NCBI GenBank assembly: GCA_022897995.1
Contig: GCA_022897995.1_4763.1
Strand: one strand, 5' to 3'
From: a phage
DNA length: 64,000 nt
Under the pieces are notes generated by a model, which was given only the letters and a program-made list of their open reading frames with translations, was not told where the DNA came from and did no database searches. Positions 3,163 through 24,226 of this stretch are shown here, in pieces. Within the stretch, counting starts at the first letter, position 1; each line of letters starts with the position of its first letter. The position numbers and the translations under genes are program-made.

Positions 3163-5063
3163 TGAGCAATTGCCTCCAGACTAATAGTTGTGTACTGAGG
3201 ACGGAGATCGTTTTCAAACACGATCAAAGAACCGTCTTTAGTAAAAATGTTATCAGCAATCGGTTTAGCTGTCAACTCAATATATGAACCAGTAAAGCGA
3301 TCGCTATTGATATTCAGTTTACCCAGATCCCATGAAATAAGGTCTTCATAATGCTGAACCTCTCCAACCTCAAAGTATAGGTCCGCACCGTCGATAACCT
3401 CTTTATCAAAATCAGTACCGGAATAATGCGGTAAAGCGATTGTAGAACCAACGGGGAAAGGTCCAACCAGCAATTTAGCTAAACCGGATTCTTTGTTCAT
3501 TTCTGTACTTACATAATGGATCGGGTATTGTTTACCGTCCTTTTCGAAGTTGAACGAACTAGACTTGATTCCGCTCTTATACTGGTTTAAAAACTTGATT
3601 CCAGCCATCGGTGCTTTATAGAAGTTGTCGATCTCTCGCACCATCTCGATTTCTGCACTAGAACCTATCACAGACACGTCAGCTTTGTCAATACGCGCAA
3701 GCATTTTAGACTTACTAAAGGTCTGGTTAAAAATTTCCACTTCGTCGGTATAATATGCATCAATCTGATCAATAACCGCACCGCGCAGCCACTGCTCTGA
3801 TTCTGATAAGTCATTGATTGAATAGGAAACTTTAATATTCTGTTTAATATACAGATAGTTAGGGTCAATGATGCTCGGTGTGATAGGGGCAAGATTATAT
3901 TTTGCCAGATAATCCCGCATATCTTCTTTTTGAACAGTTGTCAAGCGCAAGCCAGATTTAGGCTTAACAGCAACAAAAGCATAACCTGGTTTTTCTCGAT
4001 CGGTGAAACATTGTACCGCCTGAACAATACTACCAAATCGGCTGGAAACAAAAGCCTCATAGTCGGAAGCAGTTACACAACGACGCTGAGATTCACGCAT
4101 TACCGGAGCAAGTTCACGAATACGTTCGATTGATTCAGGATCACCGCCACCATCTGCGCCGACATAATCACGATCATTTGTCGGATTCTCAATAATTTTA
4201 ACAATAGAGATAGATGCAAGGGTATCCGCGTATGTGAAATTGACAGATCCGTTAGCTTCCGCGCCTTTAGTGCTGATATATTCGATAACAATATTTGCGC
4301 CCGTTGATGGTTTAAGACCACCAATATAATTTGCTTCCAGTGCACCGCCAGCAGCCGATAAAGTTGATTCACCTTCGCCAAAGAAAATTTCTGTATGTCC
4401 GTCTACGGTTTCGCGCATATAGAAAATATTACTAGCGCCAGTTGCATTAACAATACTTTCTCGTGTCCAGTCTTTCCATTCAGCACCATCTACCCACAAC
4501 TTAACCTGAGCGCGGTCAATATCTGGATCGCGGATCAGAATTTGTTTCTTCGGATCAAATAACATTTCTGTACGAACAATACGACCTTGTGCGACTTTAA
4601 GCATAGGCGTATATAAACCATTTGAACCTAAAACGCTCACAACGTCTTCTGTAGTGACAAATGGGTAAGAAGTCTGGCGATCCACACTTGCAATAAATTT
4701 AGTTCCTCGTGGGATTCGAATACTTGCCGGATTTCGTGGATGTGATACATGCAACATAATTGTAGTCGATGCACTAGTTTTACTTGCTGGCAAATATCCT
4801 AAATCTTGCGCGGCTTGAACAACTGAACTACGCTTAATTGCCGTTCTGATAAAAGATTCATATAGCGCGGCGTTAGCGAATTGCTGAATATAAAGGGTAT
4901 TATATGCGAGCAAGTCCATCAATACGTTAATACCAGCACCATTAAAATCAAAATCTTTAAATTCTTCCTGGTTTCTCATCCAGTCTGTTAATGCGCTTTT
5001 AATTTCATCGAATGTAGCAGCATTAAAAATATCAGGAATTTGTGTAATCTTTTGCTTTGTCAT
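3159..5063 (-). CDS. 6: baseplate wedge protein gp6
   Basis: 634-aa ORF between gp5.4 and gp7; start/stop overlaps typical of a late operon. Confidence 0.85.
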
Positions 5064-5353
5064 TTTATGAATACCTTCGGTGATGCCATAGCGACGGTAT
5101 CGCCACAGCTAATACGATCTGCCATTTGAATTGCTTTCTTTCCGGTAACAAATACTTTCGGGGTACTGGCGACCGTAGTTCCCCCGTGTGTATCATAAGG
5201 CTTTGTTGTTTTTGTGTGTGGTGTAATTGGGTCTCCTTCGACTAATACAGGGATACCCTCAACAAATACCTTAGATTGAGTTGCATTAATTACCGTAGGT
5301 GGGTAGTTTCCGTGCCCTGTAGTTTTAGCTTTATCGTAGGATAATCCAGCCAT
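5060..5353 (-). CDS. 5.4: PAAR-repeat spike tip protein gp5.4
   Basis: 97 aa, the same length as T4 gp5.4; PAAR-like repeats ([13 protein letters not shown]); directly downstream of gp5/gp5.1. Confidence 0.8.
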
Positions 5354-5919
5354 TAAACACCCCTATGTACATAATCTCTTAGTTGCTGCGCCCACACATC
5401 CCAATTTCCAAAAACGGTTTGAGTATAAACTTTCTCTATTGTGTGTTCGGTTACTACCGGAGGCGGATTAGTTTCACCAGCACCCTCTCGGCTATTGGAA
5501 CCACCACTATTTCCTTCACCGGAACCACCAGAAGACTCTGAAACAGATTGGATATAGGTTAGGGTTACTTTATAAGTATAAACCTCCTGTAGACGTGTAG
5601 GAGCGTTAAAATAATATAGATCTGCGGTAGTTGGATCTGGTAAATCATCAAAACTTCCGGCAGATTTTTTAATTCTATCTTTCGTTATATATTTAAGAGA
5701 ATCCGCGCCAAGCGAAAAACTATCCCGATACTCACCAGATATTTTAGTTTCTTCAACGGTAACGCCCTTATTAGGGCGATACTCGCTGATCTTAAACTCT
5801 TTAATCGTGTATGTGATGTTTGCATCAGGTGGCGTTGCTTTATAAGAGAACACCACCTCAAAGAGTTCTCGCTCGCTGATATCCTCCAATTTTGAACTCA
5901 TCGGAAGAATTTCAACCAT
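5353..5919 (-). CDS. 5.1: gp5.1-like conserved protein
   Basis: 188-aa ORF at the T4 gene 5.1 position; assignment by synteny only. Confidence 0.5.
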
Positions 5920-5927
5920 TAGTTACC

Positions 5928-7727
5928 TCACCCAAGATCAATACGGCTACCATCAATTTTAACTGTACCCGATGCGATATCTTTAACGCTTGCGCCACAA
6001 TTACGGGACCAGTCACCATTAACCTGATCTGATTTAGTGCCATTGACGGTCATATTAAAATTACCCTCAACGGTTAAATCATAGTTACCTTTAATTGTCT
6101 CGGTAGTGTTACCCTCGATCATTAATTCAGCATTACCCTTGACGTTAGCCGTCAAATTAGCGTCAAGCTGTGCGATAACATCACCGACAACATGCATATT
6201 TGCAGTACCCTCAACGGTCTGATTAACATTACCACGAACAAATTCAGTAACGTTTCCATCAACGGTTTGCATTACATTACCCATATAATAAACTTGCGCG
6301 TCACCTTCAACAACAACTTGCAGATTTCCTTTAACGTTGACTTTGCGGCCTTGCTTAACGATCAAATAGTCATCACCTTCAATCTTTTCTACCCTCGTTC
6401 CGTCCGGTCTGGTTTCTTCAAATGTACCAGAAGGATGTTTGCGGTGATAACGTTCGTGAGAAGGAGTATCATCAATCTCGATAATATGACCGCTCTCTGA
6501 CTCGTACACATGGTTATAAGGATACCTTGCAGAATACGAACTCTTAGGCTCTTTAAACATGATTCGTGTGTCTTGTGGGGTAAATGGTGCTTCTGGGTCT
6601 TCTTCTGCTCTCTGCGTCTTATAGGCAGCAATACGGGCATTTCTCAAACGTGCTCGCGGATCATCAGAAATTGATTCCTCTTTCTTTGGAGCAATTACGC
6701 CATATGATTCTAAGTTACCAGTTAAAATAATTTTAGATACACGGCTTGAACGTCCTGGAGTTTGGTTAGCCCATACCGATTGACGTAATCCATCATAGGC
6801 TTGTTTCCATTCTTCCGCTAACATCGCAGCAAGACTATTCTTAAATTTACCCAATCCACCAACACCCATTTGAAACGCCATATTTTCTAATGCCATACGA
6901 CGAGAAGCATTACACTTATTATAGACAGGTGCAATTCGTGGATGTTTGCGCATATCACGACGAGTCTTTTCTATATCGTCAGCAAATACTTTACTAACTT
7001 CTTCGGCTGTAAGTCTTCCGTTTGTAACTTCACGCCCTACCAGCTTAGAAAGTTCATTATTGATAATACCCAGATCACTGGTTTTCTTATAAATGATCAA
7101 ATGCCCGATGCCTATTGTCGGATATCCTTCTGAATCAAGATACCATTTCTCGCGATATCCCTCATCGCCCCGCAGCATTTTTTCTATTGTGTATTCTGGG
7201 TTATCGTCAACCGGAATTTGGTCTAATGGCTCGTCGTCTGGATTTACTGCAAATCCAGTGTTTTCATCTCGAATATAGACACTATCAGGTTTTGTTGTTT
7301 GTCCGGTTTCTGGGTTAATACCGCCACGAGCAAGAATATTAACATCATTACCAATATAACGAGGATATGCACCAGAAGGGTCGCAAAAACCTTCTGTAGT
7401 GAGTGGTTTCTCTGTATATTGTCCGGCAATAGTACCCAGAATAACGCAGTTTAAATAACGTTCATCTAAAGCCAAACCAAATACCATTGAACCTTCAACA
7501 ATACCAGTAGGACTTTGACCTATACCGGAGATCGCCGCGCTTGTAATATCTTGTACTGGCGTAATCCATAATAGATCTTCGGTTGGAAGACCTTGAATGT
7601 CACCGTGTGCGGATAGCGAAGGATGTATACCATGAATCCTAACCTGAACACGCCCCAGCATTAACGGGTCTTCCCTGTTTTCTACAATTCCGGTAAACCA
7701 TTTAACGGAGTTATTAAACATTAGCAT
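5928..7727 (-). CDS. 5: baseplate hub and tail lysozyme gp5
   Basis: 599 aa; T4-lysozyme-like segment (GYPTIGIGHLI); C-terminal VxGxxxxx beta-helix repeats (NVKGNLQVVVEGDAQV...). Confidence 0.9.
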   Translation of the reverse strand: MLMFNNSVKWFTGIVENREDPLMLGRVQVRIHGIHPSLSAHGDIQGLPTEDLLWITPVQDITSAAISGIGQSPTGIVEGSMVFGLALDERYLNCVILGTIAGQYTEKPLTTEGFCDPSGAYPRYIGNDVNILARGGINPETGQTTKPDSVYIRDENTGFAVNPDDEPLDQIPVDDNPEYTIEKMLRGDEGYREKWYLDSEGYPTIGIGHLIIYKKTSDLGIINNELSKLVGREVTNGRLTAEEVSKVFADDIEKTRRDMRKHPRIAPVYNKCNASRRMALENMAFQMGVGGLGKFKNSLAAMLAEEWKQAYDGLRQSVWANQTPGRSSRVSKIILTGNLESYGVIAPKKEESISDDPRARLRNARIAAYKTQRAEEDPEAPFTPQDTRIMFKEPKSSYSARYPYNHVYESESGHIIEIDDTPSHERYHRKHPSGTFEETRPDGTRVEKIEGDDYLIVKQGRKVNVKGNLQVVVEGDAQVYYMGNVMQTVDGNVTEFVRGNVNQTVEGTANMHVVGDVIAQLDANLTANVKGNAELMIEGNTTETIKGNYDLTVEGNFNMTVNGTKSDQVNGDWSRNCGASVKDIASGTVKIDGSRIDLG

Positions 7728-7738
7728 AATTAATCACC

Positions 7739-8293
7739 TTACACATCAGCCTTTTCCATTTCTCGAATGAATGCGTTAATAAATTGTTTAATTTGTGTAG
7801 GATCTATGATCTTGATCTTGCGTCGTTCCTCATTGCGGAGAATCGCATCTTCCAGTGTGTCTACTGCCGATAATGCACCATGAAACTGCAAATGACGATG
7901 ATGAATATCTCCTTTATCATACCAATTGCTTGATCCTTTCGGATATTCGGCAAGATTCCAATACTTGTTTCCGTCAATATCAACGTGGTATAATACTTGA
8001 TTTCCTCCTACATTTGCATATCGCTGTTCGGCTGATTCATATGCTGTCTCTTGATCGGTGATCCAGTCATGGAATGGATCGTATACGTCATTAAGCATCA
8101 GCAAGATCCAGTAAAGTTGTTGGTTTCCGTATACTTCATATGCAACTTGTTCCGGTCGTGGACTACCTTGAATATAATATGTTTGTATGTTATAATCAGA
8201 AATTATTGCGTTGAAATATGCGCGGTAATTGCGCACAATGTCAGTAATCATCTTGCCGTTGTATTCAATGGCAGGGAAGAAAGAAAAGAGCAT
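7739..8293 (-). CDS. 53: baseplate wedge protein gp53 (by position)
   Basis: 184-aa ORF immediately upstream of gene 5 on the same strand; T4 gp53 is about 196 aa. Confidence 0.55.
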   Translation of the reverse strand: MLFSFFPAIEYNGKMITDIVRNYRAYFNAIISDYNIQTYYIQGSPRPEQVAYEVYGNQQLYWILLMLNDVYDPFHDWITDQETAYESAEQRYANVGGNQVLYHVDIDGNKYWNLAEYPKGSSNWYDKGDIHHRHLQFHGALSAVDTLEDAILRNEERRKIKIIDPTQIKQFINAFIREMEKADV

Positions 8294-12550: not shown

Positions 12551-12811
12551 ATGTCCAATCAGCATGAACAAATGATTAATGTCCTGAAAGTACGTCTGTT
12601 TGACACTCAAGAAAAGGCCGCATTCTTAGAAGGCCAACTGAAAGATCGTGAGCGTGTATTAATGGAACTGGTACGCATTCTTGGTATTCAGCCAGACGAA
12701 AACGGCACTGTTTCCCTTGATGCTATTGTCGAAGAAGTAAAAGCACTTCTCCCTAAAGACGAAGCAGCGGAAGACGCTAAAGAGGAAGTAGAACTGATCA
12801 CGGAGGCTTGA
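12551..12811 (+). CDS. 57A: tail fiber assembly chaperone gp57A
   Basis: Small coiled-coil protein (KVRLFDTQEKAAFLEGQL) at the T4 57A position. Confidence 0.7.
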   Translation: MSNQHEQMINVLKVRLFDTQEKAAFLEGQLKDRERVLMELVRILGIQPDENGTVSLDAIVEEVKALLPKDEAAEDAKEEVELITEA

Positions 12812-13278
12812 TTATGACCCCGTTTCGAGAATCCGTTAAAGGTACATATGCGGCGGTTAAATTCACTGAGGATACACTAGACCGCATTGAAAAATTGCAG
12901 GAGTTCTACGATCTGCCTAATGCCGTTCCTCGTGATAAACTGCATAGCACTATCTTATATTCTCGTGTTTATGTTCCGTTTATCCCAGAAGAAGGGGAGA
13001 AGTTCTTAGGCTCTCTATGCCATCTGAAAGTGTTTGAAACTCAATCCGGTACTAATGCGCTTGTGTTGGCATTTGAAAGCGACTACATGCAATTCAGACA
13101 CGATATCGGCACTGCTTTAGGTGCGACGTGGGATTATCCTGAATATGTACCGCATATCACGCTTTCTTATGATGTTGGTGCGCGTAAATTTGGCACTGAC
13201 CTAGAGTTCGATTTAGAGATTGTCCGATCTCATGAGTATGTCGAAGATCTAGACCTGGAGTGGACGACCAAACTGTAA
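12808..13278 (+). CDS. 57B: gp57B, 2H phosphoesterase (Acb1-like anti-CBASS nuclease candidate)
   Basis: 156 aa with two H-x-T/S motifs (KLHSTIL and VPHITLS) typical of the 2H phosphoesterase fold; T4 57B position. Confidence 0.7.
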   Translation: MIMTPFRESVKGTYAAVKFTEDTLDRIEKLQEFYDLPNAVPRDKLHSTILYSRVYVPFIPEEGEKFLGSLCHLKVFETQSGTNALVLAFESDYMQFRHDIGTALGATWDYPEYVPHITLSYDVGARKFGTDLEFDLEIVRSHEYVEDLDLEWTTKL

Positions 13279-14000: not shown

Positions 14001-14204
14001 ATGGAATTGGATATGGTTAAAGCAAAATTTATGGGTAAGGATAAGAAAGGTAAAACATTTGTTATTAATAGAACATTGTTTCGATCTGACCTTAAGTGGG
14101 TAACACAACAATTTGCGGAAGTCAACGAGGCGGTAGTGACCTGCTTTGTTGGTGATAAGAAAGTTTTTGAAATTGACCGTCGTGGGGTGTCTAATGATCG
14201 CTAA
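14001..14204 (+). CDS. hypothetical protein
   Basis: 67-aa ORF in the plus-strand early gene series. Confidence 0.45.
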   Translation: MELDMVKAKFMGKDKKGKTFVINRTLFRSDLKWVTQQFAEVNEAVVTCFVGDKKVFEIDRRGVSNDR

Positions 14205-19160: not shown

Positions 19161-19550
19161 ATGTTTAAATTATCTCAAAGAAGCAAAGATCGGCTTGTTG
19201 GTGTACATCCAGACCTGGTAAAAGTCGTTCATCGTGCATTAGAACTGACTCCGGTCGATTTTGGTATTACGGAAGGTGTGCGTAGTCTCGCAACGCAAAA
19301 GAAATATGTTGCGGAAGGTAAATCTAAGACTATGAAATCTCGTCATCTTCATGGTTTCGCGGTTGACGTTGTAGCGTATCCGAAAGATAAGGATACATGG
19401 AACATGAAATATTACCGCATGATCGCTGATGCATTTAAACAAGCTGGTCGAGAATTGGGTGTTCCTGTTGAATGGGGCGGGGATTGGACCAGTTTCAAAG
19501 ATGGTCCTCATCTACAATTGCCTCACAGCAAATACCCAGATCCACAATAA
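19161..19550 (+). CDS. endolysin, L-alanyl-D-glutamate peptidase (M15 / T5-endolysin-like)
   Basis: Motifs SRHLHGFAVDV and EWGGDW...GPHLQL match the zinc peptidase M15 signature; sits where T4 has gene e. Confidence 0.75.
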   Translation: MFKLSQRSKDRLVGVHPDLVKVVHRALELTPVDFGITEGVRSLATQKKYVAEGKSKTMKSRHLHGFAVDVVAYPKDKDTWNMKYYRMIADAFKQAGRELGVPVEWGGDWTSFKDGPHLQLPHSKYPDPQ

Positions 19551-19611
19551 TTATTAACCATCAACGGGGAGACAATCTAAGGATCTCTCCCCGTTCACTG
19601 GAGACTTGACA

Positions 19612-20097
19612 ATGAATATTGATGTAAAATTAGAAAGTAAAGATTTGATTTATGCTGCGTGTGTTTCTGCCGTAGATGGCATCATAGAACGCCGTAAGCG
19701 ACGCAATTTTGCTGATGACCTAGATTCCATCGTCTCAATCAATTTAGGCCGTCAGACAGGGCATACAGACGCTACAATCAAGTTATATGACCATTATACG
19801 CGAAAAGGCTATAGTGTCTTTATCGTCTCAACGACGCGGGAACATGTCAAAACGATCCGAGATCGCGGTCGCGGTGAAAATGTAAATATTTCAAATGTAG
19901 ATTGCACGTCGATCCGAACTTTCCTGAATCCGATCACATGGCGAGGTCGTAGTCTTGACAGAACAATTTTTATCCTAGATACTACCATGCGCGGATTTAC
20001 TGACAGCGTATTGCAGTTTTTAGAGTTAAATCGACGTAGTGTTGGGGTGGGTAATGTAGAAGACCAACCTATTTTCATTGGCTTAGGTATCAACTAA
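19612..20097 (+). CDS. hypothetical protein
   Basis: 163-aa ORF; no recognisable motif. Confidence 0.45.
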   Translation: MNIDVKLESKDLIYAACVSAVDGIIERRKRRNFADDLDSIVSINLGRQTGHTDATIKLYDHYTRKGYSVFIVSTTREHVKTIRDRGRGENVNISNVDCTSIRTFLNPITWRGRSLDRTIFILDTTMRGFTDSVLQFLELNRRSVGVGNVEDQPIFIGLGIN

Positions 20098-20222
20098 TGA
20101 AAAATAAAGATAGCGTAGCTCGTCGATTTCGTGCTACAATTAAAAAGAATCGTAAAGTCCAACCTGATAAACTCTATGGTGTTTTGGTTGGAAAAGTTAA
20201 TGACGAACGTCCTGATCTATAA
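20097..20222 (+). CDS. small basic hypothetical protein (41 aa)
   Basis: MKNKDSVARRFRATIKKNRK...; coupled ATGA start. Confidence 0.25.
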   Translation: MKNKDSVARRFRATIKKNRKVQPDKLYGVLVGKVNDERPDL

Positions 20223-20232
20223 GAGGTGAATT

Positions 20233-20649
20233 ATGGAATTTAAAGCAATTCAAATCATGAAAGGTGAGCATAAAGGTACTATTATCGGTGGATATTTCGC
20301 CCCTATGATTCTGGTATCCGAACCTAAAGCACTGATCGGCGCTAAAGTAATTGTTAGTAAAACTTTCGCAGAAGACCATGTGATCACCGCAGAAGACGTC
20401 GATTCGCTGGCACTGCACACAACTAGCTTCCGTCCTGTTATTGTAGATAATGGTGCTCCTGTTGTCGAGGGAGGCCAGCATTTGAATGTTAACGTATTGT
20501 TACGAGAAATGTTGCTGGACGCGGTTGAACATCCTGAGAAGTACCCGCAGCTTACAATTCGCGTTTCTGGTTACGCAGTGCGCTTCAATAGTCTGACTCC
20601 AGACCAGCAGCGTGACGTTATCGCGCGTACCTTTACCGAATCTCTCTAA
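20233..20649 (+). CDS. grcA: autonomous glycyl radical cofactor (GrcA/YfiD-like)
   Basis: C-terminal [25 protein letters not shown] is the glycyl-radical signature; size (138 aa) matches GrcA. Confidence 0.8.
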
Positions 20650-20657
20650 TTTTTCAT

Positions 20658-20692
20658 CAAGCCAATCCGAAAAGGGTTGGCTTTTTCGTTTT
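20658..20692 (+). terminator. rho-independent terminator
   Basis: agccaatccgaaaagggttggct hairpin plus T-run. Confidence 0.55.
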
Positions 20693-20735
20693 ATGATGAT
20701 ATGATGCAATCTCTTAATCAACTGAGGGTTTAATT

Positions 20736-21434
20736 ATGCATACAATGGTTAAAATGGTCTTCGGATCTCACTTATACGGCCTTGATACTGAAAATTCCGA
20801 TAAAGATTATCGAGGTATCTTTGTTCCGACTGCGAAAGAAATTATTTTAGGATCGATGAAAGAACACTATGACCAAAGCACTAGCGGTCAAGGTATCAAG
20901 AACACCAAAGACGATATTGATGTTAATATGTTCAGTCTAAAAAGGTTTATCAATCTGGCATGTAAAGGTGATATTGGCGCTATTGACATGGTGCACGCGC
21001 CTAGTAACATGTTGATTGAATCCTCCAGAGAATGGGAATACATCCGAACACATCGCGATAAATTCTATCATGTTGGTATGTGGGGTTGTTCTGGCTATCT
21101 CAAAAAGCAGGTAGCCAAATCTGAAAAGTATTTCAGTAACTGGAAAGATCTTTCTCATGCTCTGCGTGTTGGTTATCAGCTACTTGAAATCTATCAGACA
21201 GGTGATCTACAATTCCCGCTCGCGCGACGTTCTTCTATTTTAGCGTGTAAGTTAGGAGAAAGAACCTTTGATAATGTGCGGGAAGAATTGAAAGATCTCT
21301 ACGAGCGTGTTAAACTCGCGCGTGAAGAGGCAAAGAAAAACGGTATGCCGGAAGAACCAGATGTTGACTTTTGGAAAGATTTATTAGAATATATTCATCT
21401 GACCGTTGTTCTGGAACACTATACCCGTGGTTAG
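20736..21434 (+). CDS. Pol-beta superfamily nucleotidyltransferase-like protein
   Basis: N-terminal FGSHLYGLDTENSDKDYRGIFV fits the hG[GS]x9-13 D-x-D NTase motif; 232 aa with helical C-terminus. Confidence 0.55.
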   Translation: MHTMVKMVFGSHLYGLDTENSDKDYRGIFVPTAKEIILGSMKEHYDQSTSGQGIKNTKDDIDVNMFSLKRFINLACKGDIGAIDMVHAPSNMLIESSREWEYIRTHRDKFYHVGMWGCSGYLKKQVAKSEKYFSNWKDLSHALRVGYQLLEIYQTGDLQFPLARRSSILACKLGERTFDNVREELKDLYERVKLAREEAKKNGMPEEPDVDFWKDLLEYIHLTVVLEHYTRG

Positions 21435-21455
21435 TTAATATAGGAGATTAAGAAA

Positions 21456-21650
21456 ATGCAAGTTTATACCAATAGCAATAAAGGCAATGATATCACACCG
21501 GGAAAGATGTATGATTTTACCCCGGCACGAGACGACGAACATCCACCGACTATCGGGTATATTGAAGATGATGCGGGGTTTCGTATTACGATCCTTCTTG
21601 ATGGTGGATGTTCTCATCTTCGCGGTGATCGTTGGGAGTTAGTACCATGA
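21456..21650 (+). CDS. small paralog family member A
   Basis: 64 aa; shares the C[SA]HL[RD]G/Y-x-W-x-[LI]V C-terminal motif with the next two ORFs. Confidence 0.5.
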   Translation: MQVYTNSNKGNDITPGKMYDFTPARDDEHPPTIGYIEDDAGFRITILLDGGCSHLRGDRWELVP

Positions 21651-21892
21651 TGTATGTGATGACACCTTATAGTAACCGCAAGTATATTACACCAAATGCA
21701 CTGTATGAATATACACCACATGAAAGATTTGCGAATAGTGGTTATATCCGTGATGATAAGGGACACCAGATTTTTATTTGTCTTAAAAATTGTGCACACT
21801 TAGACGGTCGAACATGGACACTGGTCGAAGAACCAAAACAACCTGAGAATAAAGGTCTTTGGAATGTGCTAAAAAAATTCTTGAAAAAGTAG
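21647..21892 (+). CDS. small paralog family member B
   Basis: Paralog of 21456 and 21950 (NCAHLDGRTWTLV). Confidence 0.5.
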   Translation: MMYVMTPYSNRKYITPNALYEYTPHERFANSGYIRDDKGHQIFICLKNCAHLDGRTWTLVEEPKQPENKGLWNVLKKFLKK

Positions 21893-21921
21893 TTGACAGC
21901 ATGAAACGGGGGTAGTAATAT
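21893..21921 (+). promoter_or_regulatory. early promoter with stem-loop (PeSL-type)
   Basis: TTGACA, inverted repeat gggggtagtaatataccccc, TAATAT; near-identical to the element at 13773. Confidence 0.6.
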
Positions 21922-21949
21922 ACCCCCATCGAAACAAAGGAGTATTAAA

Positions 21950-22288
21950 ATGAGTGTTAAAGAAGTATTTGTTTATACTGACTATGACAGGTGCGCCTAT
22001 CTCACTGCTGGAAAACTTTACCGTTGTGAGATTATTCATGGTACGCTAGGTCGAATTATGTGCGATCCGATTACAAAATTGTGGAAAAACAATCCTAGTG
22101 AGCGAGAAACTATTATTAACCTAGATTCAGACGGTTGTTCACATTTGGACTATAGAAAATGGCATATCGTGACACATGATGCTTATGGTATTCATCTTGC
22201 TACTAAAGAATTGACTATTGACAAGTTCAAGTTTAAAGAAATCCCGTTTGTATACTGGCTTCGCAATTTGTTTAAGAAAGGAGAATAA
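21950..22288 (+). CDS. small paralog family member C
   Basis: Paralog (DGCSHLDYRKWHIV). Confidence 0.5.
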   Translation: MSVKEVFVYTDYDRCAYLTAGKLYRCEIIHGTLGRIMCDPITKLWKNNPSERETIINLDSDGCSHLDYRKWHIVTHDAYGIHLATKELTIDKFKFKEIPFVYWLRNLFKKGE

Positions 22289-22289
22289 A

Positions 22290-22712
22290 ATGGAAACAAT
22301 TAATGTACACGTTCGCCGTAGCAAGCTGCGCAGATTCTTCGAAGCTGAAATGCGTAAGACTAACGCACAAATCAAAGAAAAGTGCTTGAATAATGGTTAC
22401 GGTGAGTATATTTTCATTCGCTTTAGTCCGCATATGATCGACCGTCTAACCGACCGCCATATCGATGAACATAAGACAATGGAACTATTCAATAAGGTAG
22501 AAACTCGTTTGCCGGAGATATTCGACTTCCTGAAAATGGAAGACCGACCTAATCGATTAGAAATTACTGACGGTAACATGTGGATCGGGATGACAGTAGA
22601 TCTAATCGAAGACGGTAAACCGTATCACGGTCTATGCTGCCGAATGATTATAGAGAATCCAAAACGACTGGCGGGTAAAATGTCGGCTGTTGTTTTGAAA
22701 GTGGACCAATAA
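22290..22712 (+). CDS. regB: RegB sequence-specific endoribonuclease
   Basis: METINVHVRRSKLRRFFEAEM ... RPNRLEITDGNMWIGMTV ... CRMIIENPKRLAGK matches T4 RegB as I recall it; located between e and tk as in T4. Confidence 0.75.
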   Translation: METINVHVRRSKLRRFFEAEMRKTNAQIKEKCLNNGYGEYIFIRFSPHMIDRLTDRHIDEHKTMELFNKVETRLPEIFDFLKMEDRPNRLEITDGNMWIGMTVDLIEDGKPYHGLCCRMIIENPKRLAGKMSAVVLKVDQ

Positions 22713-22734
22713 TGGAGATTGGTTAAAATAATGC

Positions 22735-22763
22735 TTGACTTTCTGGTGATAGGGCTATATTAT
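22735..22763 (+). promoter_or_regulatory. candidate sigma70-type promoter
   Basis: TTGACT, 17 bp spacer, TATTAT upstream of 22798. Confidence 0.35.
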
Positions 22764-22797
22764 GGAATCAGAAAGTTAAGCCAAACAGGAGAAATTA

Positions 22798-23388
22798 ATG
22801 TTAAAAGTTCTAAAAGCGATAGTATTGAGTCTGTCACTAGCCGTTGGTGCTACACACGCATCGACTAGCGCACCGATCAAAAAAGCGCCGATAGACAACT
22901 TTACAGCACACCAACTAGATAATTTACATTTCGCCTATCAATACGGCGAGCAATTCGAGAAAAGCGGTAAGTTGAAAAAGGACCATCCGAATATTCGCTA
23001 TAACGGAAAGGGTTTAGGTCACATCCTGGCGGGTATCGCATGGCAAGAATCAAGCGCGGGTGCAAACTTAGCACCAAAGAAAAATCATCATGCTTATGGA
23101 TTATTTCAAAATTACCTTAAAACGGTGAAAGCGAAAAATGCAAAGCGCGGTGTTAAAATGAGTGATCGCCAGACTATCAACTTTATCATGAATCGCGAGG
23201 TTTCTGCATTCTACGCGATGGATGAGTTAGCATACTGGCTGGATGTTCGAAACGGTAATATCCGACTCGCGCTGGCTTCTTACAATGCTGGATGGAACTA
23301 TAAAGCCGGTTTAGGTTATGCTGATGACGTATTAAAAAAAGCTAACCATCTAAAGAGTAAAGGCATTCTTAAAACTAAACGCTATTGA
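22798..23388 (+). CDS. secreted soluble lytic transglycosylase (SLT domain) protein
   Basis: Signal peptide (MLKVLKAIVLSLSLAVGATHAS); SLT motifs WQESS, GLFQ, SYNAGW. Confidence 0.65.
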   Translation: MLKVLKAIVLSLSLAVGATHASTSAPIKKAPIDNFTAHQLDNLHFAYQYGEQFEKSGKLKKDHPNIRYNGKGLGHILAGIAWQESSAGANLAPKKNHHAYGLFQNYLKTVKAKNAKRGVKMSDRQTINFIMNREVSAFYAMDELAYWLDVRNGNIRLALASYNAGWNYKAGLGYADDVLKKANHLKSKGILKTKRY

Positions 23389-23395
23389 GGAATAT

Positions 23396-23755
23396 ATGAA
23401 AAAGTTGACAATAATTGCTATGATTGCTATGATGTTCTCTGCTGGTGCGCTTGCTAGTAATGAGCGCCCTTATCCAAAGTTCGAATACAAAGGATTTGAG
23501 ATCAACAAAAAGATCATTAAAACCTTCTGTGATGATGATAACATGTGTAGCGATTTTATCGCACTTGAACTCGACGAAGCCTATAAACAAGGCCGAGATG
23601 AAAAACGAAAAAATCGAGCATGGGATCTGAGTATTGCCAGCTTTGCTAAAACAAAACGCAACCTGTGTGATACTGCCCCTGATAAGCAATTATGCTTTGC
23701 TTATCGCGACACACTGTTAAGCCGTTTTATGGCTGGGTTGTCTTCCCGTGACTAA
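23396..23755 (+). CDS. secreted/periplasmic hypothetical protein
   Basis: Signal peptide MKKLTIIAMIAMMFSAGALAS; several Cys. Confidence 0.5.
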   Translation: MKKLTIIAMIAMMFSAGALASNERPYPKFEYKGFEINKKIIKTFCDDDNMCSDFIALELDEAYKQGRDEKRKNRAWDLSIASFAKTKRNLCDTAPDKQLCFAYRDTLLSRFMAGLSSRD

Positions 23756-23770
23756 TGAGAGGTTTATATT

Positions 23771-24226
23771 ATGATTATTGATACTGTAAAGGGCGATCTC
23801 ATCGCCCTGTTTAAACAAGGAAACGGTCATTTAATTCATGGTTGTAATTGTTTTCATACTATGGGCGCTGGTATTGCTGCGAAGATCGCGAAAGAGTTCC
23901 CGCAAGCATTGGCTACTGACAAAAAGACACCGAGAGGAACGGCTAGTAAGCTAGGCGAGTTCAATGTTTGGCATCATACCGTTAATGGTTATAACTGGAT
24001 GGGTATTAATCTTTATACGCAATTCCGCCCAGGACCAAATGCTGAATATTCCGCTATCATCCGTGGATTCGAACAACTTAACTTCGCATTTGAAGGTACT
24101 GTTAAGCCGTTCTATATTCCTAAAATTGGTTGTGGGATTGGTGGCCTAGAATGGGAATGCGTAGAAGAAATCATTAATGATTTTACGCCGGATATCAATA
24201 TTGTGGTGGTGGAATATGACAAATAA
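23771..24226 (+). CDS. macrodomain protein (TARG1/DarG-like ADP-ribose binding/hydrolase fold)
   Basis: VKGDLIALF..HGCNC..MGAGIA...PKIGCGIGGLEWECV aligns with human TARG1 (ITYVKGDLFA..HCISEDCRMGAGIA...PRIGCGLDRLQWENV) as I recall it. Confidence 0.75.
   Translation: MIIDTVKGDLIALFKQGNGHLIHGCNCFHTMGAGIAAKIAKEFPQALATDKKTPRGTASKLGEFNVWHHTVNGYNWMGINLYTQFRPGPNAEYSAIIRGFEQLNFAFEGTVKPFYIPKIGCGIGGLEWECVEEIINDFTPDINIVVVEYDK

Follow-up and report, generated by a model that had tools for sequence, protein, structure and literature searches.

What kind of nucleotidyltransferase (NTase) is encoded by the open reading frame (ORF) at positions 20736-21434 of a 64,000-nucleotide phage sequence (contig GCA_022897995.1_4763.1 of assembly GCA_022897995.1), and on which substrate would it act? 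The whole of this stretch is referred to here as the window. The original prediction, made from the letters and a list of ORFs, was a polymerase beta (Pol-beta)-fold NTase cargo gene of unknown substrate. By its sequence, the gene is nrdC.11, an already annotated and known member of the RlaP family (PF10127). We put the chances slightly above even that the product is a short-form RlaP NTase, the Krischvirus counterpart of T4 NrdC.11, which restores nucleotides to damaged tRNA before ligation. The gene is as follows.

20736..21434, plus strand: nrdC.11, RlaP-family nucleotidyltransferase gene, short form, 232 amino acids (ORF, PF10127 match, RB49p098 annotation and ratio of nonsynonymous to synonymous substitution, dN/dS)

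On the Pfam model PF10127 (RlaP, 'RNA repair pathway DNA polymerase beta family', also RNA-ligase-associated Pol-beta NTase), whose cut-off is 23, the protein scores 53.1 bits (E=4.7e-14), with residues 7-191 lying on model positions 24-198 of 249, and it matches PHROG 388 'nucleotidyltransferase' with E=5e-80. The RefSeq orthologue in phage RB49 is RB49p098, gene 'nrdC.11', product 'nucleotidyltransferase', with the note 'similar to T4 tk.-11', and Krischvirus proteins more than 99% identical to that of the window are annotated 'nucleotidyltransferase'. Matches were found by tblastn in 1584 of 50,697 phage records, and take in nrdC.11 of T2, RB14, RB27 and JS98 as well as a gene of a Bacillus phage whose annotation reads 'RlaP RNA repair protein'. 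Furthermore, a HMMER scan of 1.84 billion cluster representatives yielded 3564 relatives at E<=1e-3. PF10127 is present in all 120 homologues among the matches listed, and the best matches are all NrdC.11-type proteins of Straboviridae and related phages. Scans against NCBIfam gave no match, and searches of PDB sequences, with the single sequence and with a profile, returned no NTase but noise matches (haemoglobin, SAMTOR). Many phage records call the same protein a thioredoxin, a glutaredoxin, a 'putative HNH homing endonuclease' or hypothetical; the redox and other stray labels seem to be mistakes passed from record to record that go back to the gene name nrdC.11, with nothing in the sequence to back the redox ones.

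Identity to T4-type NrdC.11 amounts to 41-50% in both conserved halves of the protein. The T4-type proteins are longer, with 300-345 amino acids (T4 ~336) versus 232 in the window, and the alignment pairs window residues 1-128 and ~136-232 with sequences between which the T4 type carries an extra ~100-110 residues. We refer to the two as the short and the long form.

Is the protein equipped for catalysis? Four conserved segments bear on this question.

20763..20807, plus strand: G10-S11 ... D22-x-D24, nucleotide- and metal-binding motif of Pol-beta NTases, unchanged across two alignments (17 and 57 homologues)
20901..20921, plus strand: N56-T57-K58-D59-D60-I61-D62, (nearly) invariant motif in which D62 (or D60) is presumed to be the third catalytic carboxylate
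20985..20996, plus strand: D84-M85-V86-H87, conserved NTase-domain segment, D84 invariant, M85 and H87 at least 90% conserved
21141..21167, plus strand: W136-K137...H141...R144, motif invariant in 57 sequences, on the first long helix (H136-155) of the C-terminal helical domain

The peptide from which the Pol-beta NTase assignment was first drawn, FGSHLYGLDTENSDKDYRGIFV, comprises residues 9-30. Here G10-S11, ten residues and then D22-x-D24 fit the Pol-beta NTase signature and align with GS...SDYDVR of canonical RlaP, and the invariance of these four residues in 57 homologues takes the G[SG]-x9-13-D-x-D pattern far beyond a chance motif. N56, D60 and D62 are likewise invariant in the 57 sequences, in a motif that aligns with D-F-D of canonical RlaP. 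The third catalytic carboxylate is most likely D62 (or D60), because it is invariant, aligned with the canonical RlaP D-x-D and placed at the start of a beta-strand. D24 and D62 are 38 residues apart, and so are D49 and E87 in AadA. D84 had also been a candidate for this carboxylate and was demoted, since it lies in a helix and is aligned with Asn in canonical RlaP; the nearby H87 aligns with a His there. The W136...R144 motif, which corresponds by eye to the 'K..Y.LR' segment of canonical RlaP, has a putative role in binding RNA or nucleoside triphosphate (NTP). Altogether, the window protein retains 29 of the 29 invariant columns of the 57-homologue alignment.

The predicted structure tells a similar story. 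An AlphaFold2 model built on the 57-sequence alignment (predicted local distance difference test, pLDDT, 91.5; predicted template modelling score 0.87) has an alpha/beta NTase core at residues 1-95, with strand E2-9 and then, at 11-14, the GS turn-helix. D22/D24 lie where strand E24-30 starts, and the NTKDDID motif leads into strand E62-67, which starts at D62. Residues ~98-230 are almost wholly helical in the model, with five long helices including a terminal one at 210-230, so that the expected helical domain of about 150 amino acids was roughly right. The order of the elements, terminal helix included, agrees with the published description of the PfRlaP crystal structure, namely an N-terminal NTase domain, a C-terminal helical domain and, at the end, a helix that folds back against the NTase domain (PMC12776372); the two were compared by description only. 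Foldseek searches with the model place the protein within the NTase superfamily, and motif and predicted fold together bear out the Pol-beta-fold assignment. In a viral structure library, many 'nucleotidyltransferases' of phages and giant viruses and baculovirus HE65 match at template modelling (TM) scores of 0.6-0.84. In the PDB, the top matches are the kanamycin NTase ANT(4') (E 3.5e-5, TM ~0.4) and Hailong HalB (E 1e-4, TM 0.41-0.50), followed by LinB, 3c18, Tam41 and AadA. On the strength of the model, HalB and kanamycin NTase would be the nearest solved folds, yet remote ones.

Two rival readings take their cue from these fold neighbours. As cited in other work, Tan et al. (2025; PMC12360457) describe HalB as protein-primed, processive and specific for deoxyadenosine triphosphate, and as encoded beside the HalA channel in bacteria. 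By fold similarity, which is the one thing that speaks for it, the phage protein might then make oligonucleotides (e.g., oligo-dA) de novo or on a protein primer, the product being an anti-defence signal or decoy that, for instance, keeps a Hailong-type DNA-gated channel closed or soaks up a host sensor. This scenario is very improbable: no profile-level sequence similarity to HalB is found, kanamycin NTase scores equally well in Foldseek, which points to shared architecture and not to close kinship, the Pfam family is that of RlaP, which adds just one or two nucleotides and needs an RNA primer, and the clade is linked to RNA ligases (see below). A further version, in which oligo-dA is replenished while phage nucleases work and the short form without the insert is specialised for such a role, has an equally slight probability.

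The second of these readings is an antitoxin of the MNT type or a protein AMPylase neutralising a HEPN-type host toxin, or else an aminoglycoside/lincosamide-type small-molecule NTase; it takes in the relatives named in the original prediction. The helical bundle of the model resembles, if anything, a KNTase_C/HEPN domain fused in cis. The aminoglycoside NTases proposed as kin turn out to be remote fold neighbours only (Foldseek TM ~0.4, identity 9-11%); the antibiotic NTases as a set (ANT(4'), LinB, AadA, AAD(9)) show TM scores of ~0.3-0.45 and 9-13% identity, and across all the enzymes relevant to this reading identity is 9-14% at TM ~0.3-0.45. The protein has no Pfam or NCBIfam match to the ANT/KNTase sequence families. 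The suggested kinship with MNT/AbiEii and AMPylases found no support either: a Pfam scan of nine neighbouring products (ORFs within 19161-24226) gave no ligase, kinase, HEPN, AbiE or transmembrane-effector match, and hence no separate HEPN partner, and PADLOC returned only a noise match at E=0.028. The protein is also twice the minimal MNT size with its helical domain fused in cis, proteins are not RlaP substrates, and antibiotic modification has no obvious use to a lytic phage. We thus regard this reading as highly unlikely.

If the protein is an RlaP, what would it do? The RlaP name and a prediction of RNA repair trace to Burroughs and Aravind (2016; PMC5062991), as cited in later work. The first biochemistry for the family comes from the December 2025 preprint of Carruthers, Fatma and Huang (PMC12776372), in which PfRlaP (P. 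fluorescens) and PaRlaP (P. aeruginosa) add one or two nucleoside monophosphates (NMPs) to RNA 3'-OH and leave DNA and protein unmodified; deoxyadenosine monophosphate is accepted as well. Both enzymes work better with Mn2+ and, on a mimic of cleaved tRNA, act preferentially at the broken end of the anticodon loop. RlaP partly restores the aminoacylation of a tRNA missing one anticodon-loop nucleotide prior to ligation (PMC12776372). Membership of PF10127, the RB49 annotation and the action of bacterial RlaPs on RNA 3'-OH thus give a direction to what had been termed an unknown substrate, and 'nucleic acid ends', one of the targets first proposed, is the option that the evidence favours. By analogy with the bacterial enzymes, addition of NMPs to RNA 3'-OH is likely to be the chemistry of the phage enzyme as well. 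tRNA halves may be its natural substrate, and RloC-like nucleases the selective pressure behind it.

In such a mechanism, the NTase core (G10-S11, D22, D24 and D62 or D60) would bind an NTP together with a pair of divalent metal ions (probably Mn2+), and an RNA 3' end would sit in the cleft that separates this core from the C-terminal helical domain (W136, K137, H141, R144). One or two untemplated NMPs would then be added to the 3'-OH. During infection, host nucleotide-excising anticodon nucleases of the RloC type would cut tRNA, taking out a nucleotide. Phage Pnk would heal the ends to 3'-OH and 5'-phosphate (5'-P), RlaP would replace the nucleotide and RNA ligase 1 (Rnl1) would seal the loop, a 3'-OH product being directly suited to a 5'-P ligase such as Rnl1. 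A fraction of functional tRNA would be recovered, and phage translation could continue.

Is there a link to RNA repair in the genomes themselves? In the 99.6%-identical phage SSG23, genes for an RnlA-type RNA ligase and Pnk lie ~90 kb from nrdC.11, the equivalent place being outside the window. One phage contig (L088) has the gene order AAA_33 kinase, HD+AAA_33, Rnl1-type ligase, two small genes, RlaP. Furthermore, we examined 80 bacterial or metagenome-assembled genome loci with NrdC.11-like proteins. RtcB is encoded within 6 kb in 11 of these; one other feature, a kinase-Metallophos-Rnl1 fusion immediately upstream, was seen in 1/80, and a Pnk-phosphatase-like ORF in the same position in 1/80. 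At least 14 of the 80 have an RNA-repair neighbour, a count that is a lower bound obtained with few query proteins. In jumbo phages, according to the literature, the distribution of RlaP mirrors that of RNA ligases. From sequence and gene order, the NrdC.11-like clade as a whole appears clearly linked to RNA repair. A canonical RlaP paralogue directly follows the long form in 14/80 loci (L064 at 4510-7778; L015, L017, L026, L028, L030, L041, L059, L063, L071, L079 and others), often with RtcB close by; in Methyloligella (L064) the order is RtcB, NrdC.11-like protein, canonical RlaP.

A local repair partner was considered in the window gene at 12808-13278 (plus strand), whose SSG23 counterpart is labelled 'RNA ligase', and was rejected. 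Its product is Acb1, a 2H phosphoesterase of 156 amino acids acting against the cyclic-oligonucleotide-based antiphage signalling system (CBASS), with two HxT motifs and a PF23474 match at E=1.5e-51; the SSG23 label is misleading.

How should the missing part of the protein be understood? The place where it is absent is a short linker.

21117..21140, plus strand: K128-N135, short linker where T4-type NrdC.11 carries a ~100-110-residue insert (alignments, tblastn)

A tblastn search of the window with the T4-type protein P0017 recovers residues 1-151 and 241-328 only. In the P0017 model (pLDDT 86), the insert (residues ~131-240) consists of a helix, a 5-6-stranded sheet and a long helix, and is thus predicted to be a separate helix/beta-sheet/helix subdomain. 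In the long clade two motifs that hardly vary, KYG[VI]KGSR and YGERAR.AE.N, stand on either side of it, and the window protein lacks both. The PF10127 model runs collinearly through the short forms, up to position 198 in the window protein and 229 in its 57%-identical relative P0002, which has equal length and synteny, and stops at 142 in RB27 NrdC.11. The linker of canonical RlaP at the insertion point has just ~15 residues. The short form therefore has the layout of canonical RlaP. Only about five short forms are found among the best 150 representatives. In a neighbour-joining tree of the shared columns, three sets of short forms (the window protein with P0002; P0153; P0146/P0230) are each nested within long forms, and the boundaries of the deletions differ; by this pattern at least three independent losses of the insert took place in the NrdC.11-like clade. 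In P0121, the closest long relative of the window protein, the insert is already divergent and without both flanking motifs.

One might object that the enzyme, ~100 residues shorter than T4 NrdC.11, was inactivated by this loss, and that the ORF is a decaying remnant on its way to disappearing. The absence of the alpha/beta insert and of two motifs nearly invariant in long forms would agree with this, as would the dispensability of the gene family in T4 in the laboratory. Nevertheless, pairwise comparison of the window gene with four Krischvirus orthologues gives dN/dS values of 0.015-0.047, none of the invariant residues of the catalytic core and the helical domain has been lost, the predicted fold is compact and of high confidence, canonical RlaP has the same short architecture, and the gene persists both in P0002 and in 59/59 Krischvirus records that match the region. 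Decay is thus a most improbable explanation. The canonical layout, the repeated loss and the low dN/dS argue for a functional, minimised enzyme rather than a remnant.

The same region informs on the history of the gene. The 4.5 kb around nrdC.11 are 94.5-97% identical to 59 phage records, all of them RB49-like Krischvirus (Straboviridae) coliphages or Shigella phages, and nrdC.11 is kept in place in every one. By tblastn there is one nrdC.11 place per Krischvirus record, and a second copy is absent from the window. The ORF starts at an ATG and has 232 codons plus a stop, with a guanine-cytosine (GC) content of 40.2% versus 40.1% for the window. Two features precede it.

20724..20728, plus strand: Shine-Dalgarno GAGGG, 7 nucleotides before the ATG, read from the sequence
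20659..20705, plus strand: hairpin resembling a terminator (20659-20683) downstream of vs.6, overlapped by a sigma-70-like promoter (20677-20705), from a consensus scan only

The promoter-like site reads TTGGCT-17-TATGAT, with TG (consensus matches only), and could be a candidate driver of early transcription of nrdC.11. The record of phage G37-3 has a terminator annotated at the place homologous to the hairpin. Because of the Shine-Dalgarno sequence, the promoter-like site, the invariant motif, the window-like GC and the low dN/dS, we take the ORF to be a real, expressed-looking coding gene under strong constraint and not a recent acquisition. The term 'cargo' is thus better replaced by native accessory gene of T4-like phages, given the matching GC and the conservation across Krischviruses.

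How far, then, does the evidence carry a role in tRNA repair? Several observations weigh against it. The window gene adjoins no RNA ligase or Pnk gene. The biochemistry covers PfRlaP and PaRlaP only; Carruthers et al. place T4 NrdC.11 in cluster 5 of their PF10127 sequence similarity network (PfRlaP/PaRlaP in cluster 1a) and call its function unknown (PMC12776372). Literature searches on nrdC.11 and on RloC together with nucleotidyltransferase turned up no experiments with the phage protein. Likeness to canonical RlaP is weak beyond the N-terminal 120 residues: against that of Methyloligella (L064), BLASTP gives E=0.002 and hhalign a probability of 31% over the N-terminal ~110 residues only. 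The tandem pairs suggest that long and canonical RlaP are not functionally equivalent and divide labour in one repair operon, and the short form, without KYG[VI]KGSR and YGERAR.AE.N, may differ from the long clade in substrate recognition. Untemplated addition restores the correct nucleotide only part of the time (PMC12776372). Finally, T4 survives loss of the nrdC.11-mobD.3 fragment in the laboratory, so that no phenotype anchors the role; such dispensability is as expected for a counter-defence function.

Some of these points lend themselves to another job for the same chemistry, in which untemplated NMPs added to RNA 3' ends would rebuild trimmed tRNA 3'-CCA ends or tail host or phage RNAs to alter their stability, independently of repair by ligation. 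The lack of linkage between nrdC.11 and pnk/rnlA in this phage, the setting among RNA-metabolism genes with regB ~0.9 kb downstream, and the lack of the insert and its conserved motifs are in line with such a job, and RlaP does label full-length tRNA and rRNA-sized species with little NTP specificity (PMC12776372). Against this, the clade is tied to RtcB, Rnl1 and Pnkp across genomes, PfRlaP favours the broken anticodon-loop end of the tRNA mimic over its acceptor 3' end, and the protein has no Pfam match to CCA-adding or poly(A) polymerase families. Overall, we consider such addition to RNA 3' ends outside ligase-mediated repair rather unlikely, if clearly the least remote of the alternatives considered here. 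For the preferred reading, replacement of nucleotides in damaged tRNA, the part that concerns a specific tRNA-repair role in infection stands at just under an even chance.

The surroundings of the gene offer some further observations. Upstream lies vs.6 (GrcA-like); downstream are three small paralogous ORFs, followed by regB. The product of vs.6 (20233-20649, plus strand) has a C-terminal glycyl-radical domain of the GrcA/pyruvate formate-lyase type (RVSGYAV) at residues 78-119, after an unrelated N-terminus of ~75 residues, and its labels vary between autonomous glycyl radical cofactor, pyruvate formate-lyase and hypothetical. The three tandem small ORFs between nrdC.11 and regB (21456-21650, 21632-21892 and 21950-22288, plus strand) are mutual paralogues (PHROG 6261 / 15978, cross-matching); they have no Pfam match and fall only in PHROG families of unknown function. 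In G37-3, JSE and the metagenomic contig with P0002, the gap between vs.6 and nrdC.11 carries an HNH/NUMOD4 homing endonuclease gene (in relatives at 1706-2299 of L093 and 3951-4547 of L007); the window gap, 20650-20735, is an empty site with just the terminator-like and promoter-like segment. regB and the RlaP gene share their early region with genes for a macro-domain protein (23771-24226, plus strand; Pfam Macro, PHROG 'phosphatase') and for Dmd, an antitoxin that counters RnlA/LsoA (14001-14204, plus strand). By position, regB, the RlaP gene, the macro-domain gene and Dmd form a loose concentration of RNA- and nucleotide-conflict genes. No tRNA genes were found within the 64-kb window.

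A repair role for phage RlaP is already a hypothesis in print (Burroughs and Aravind 2016, as cited in later work; Carruthers et al. 2025). If true, T4-like phages would own a third RNA-repair component besides Pnk and Rnl1, and with it an answer to anticodon nucleases such as RloC, whose removal of a nucleotide defeats plain re-ligation. To this our analysis makes minor additions. In Krischviruses, strong selection maintains an enzyme that is minimised by nature, and so small a protein could be handy for biochemical or crystallographic work; the insert in the middle of T4 NrdC.11 is dispensable and was lost more than once; and the bacterial long form is often paired with canonical RlaP.

How does the window protein compare with known systems? 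Like ANT(4'), LinB, AadA and AAD(9), it joins a Pol-beta NTase core to a helical substrate-binding domain (KNTase_C/HEPN-like) further along the chain, but those enzymes use small-molecule substrates and lie outside PF10127. Hailong HalB (PDB 9dbh/9dbi/9dbj) differs in having no detectable sequence similarity to it, and the window locus has no HalA-like neighbour. PfRlaP and PaRlaP resemble it in family (PF10127), length class, conserved Asp residues and, by its model, the order of NTase core, short linker, helical domain and C-terminal helix. In contrast, they are distant in sequence, and their genes sit inside rtcB-rtcA operons whereas the window gene is unlinked to a ligase; the window enzyme would have Rnl1, a 5'-P ligase, as its partner rather than RtcB. 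The closest counterpart is T4 NrdC.11, which shares the invariant GS, DxD, NTKDDxD, D84 and WK..H..R, and which is likewise the product of an early-region accessory gene in Straboviridae phages with Pnk and Rnl1 genes of their own. The two genes differ in their setting, that of T4 lying between nrdC.10 and the mobD/tk block and that of the window between vs.6 and regB.

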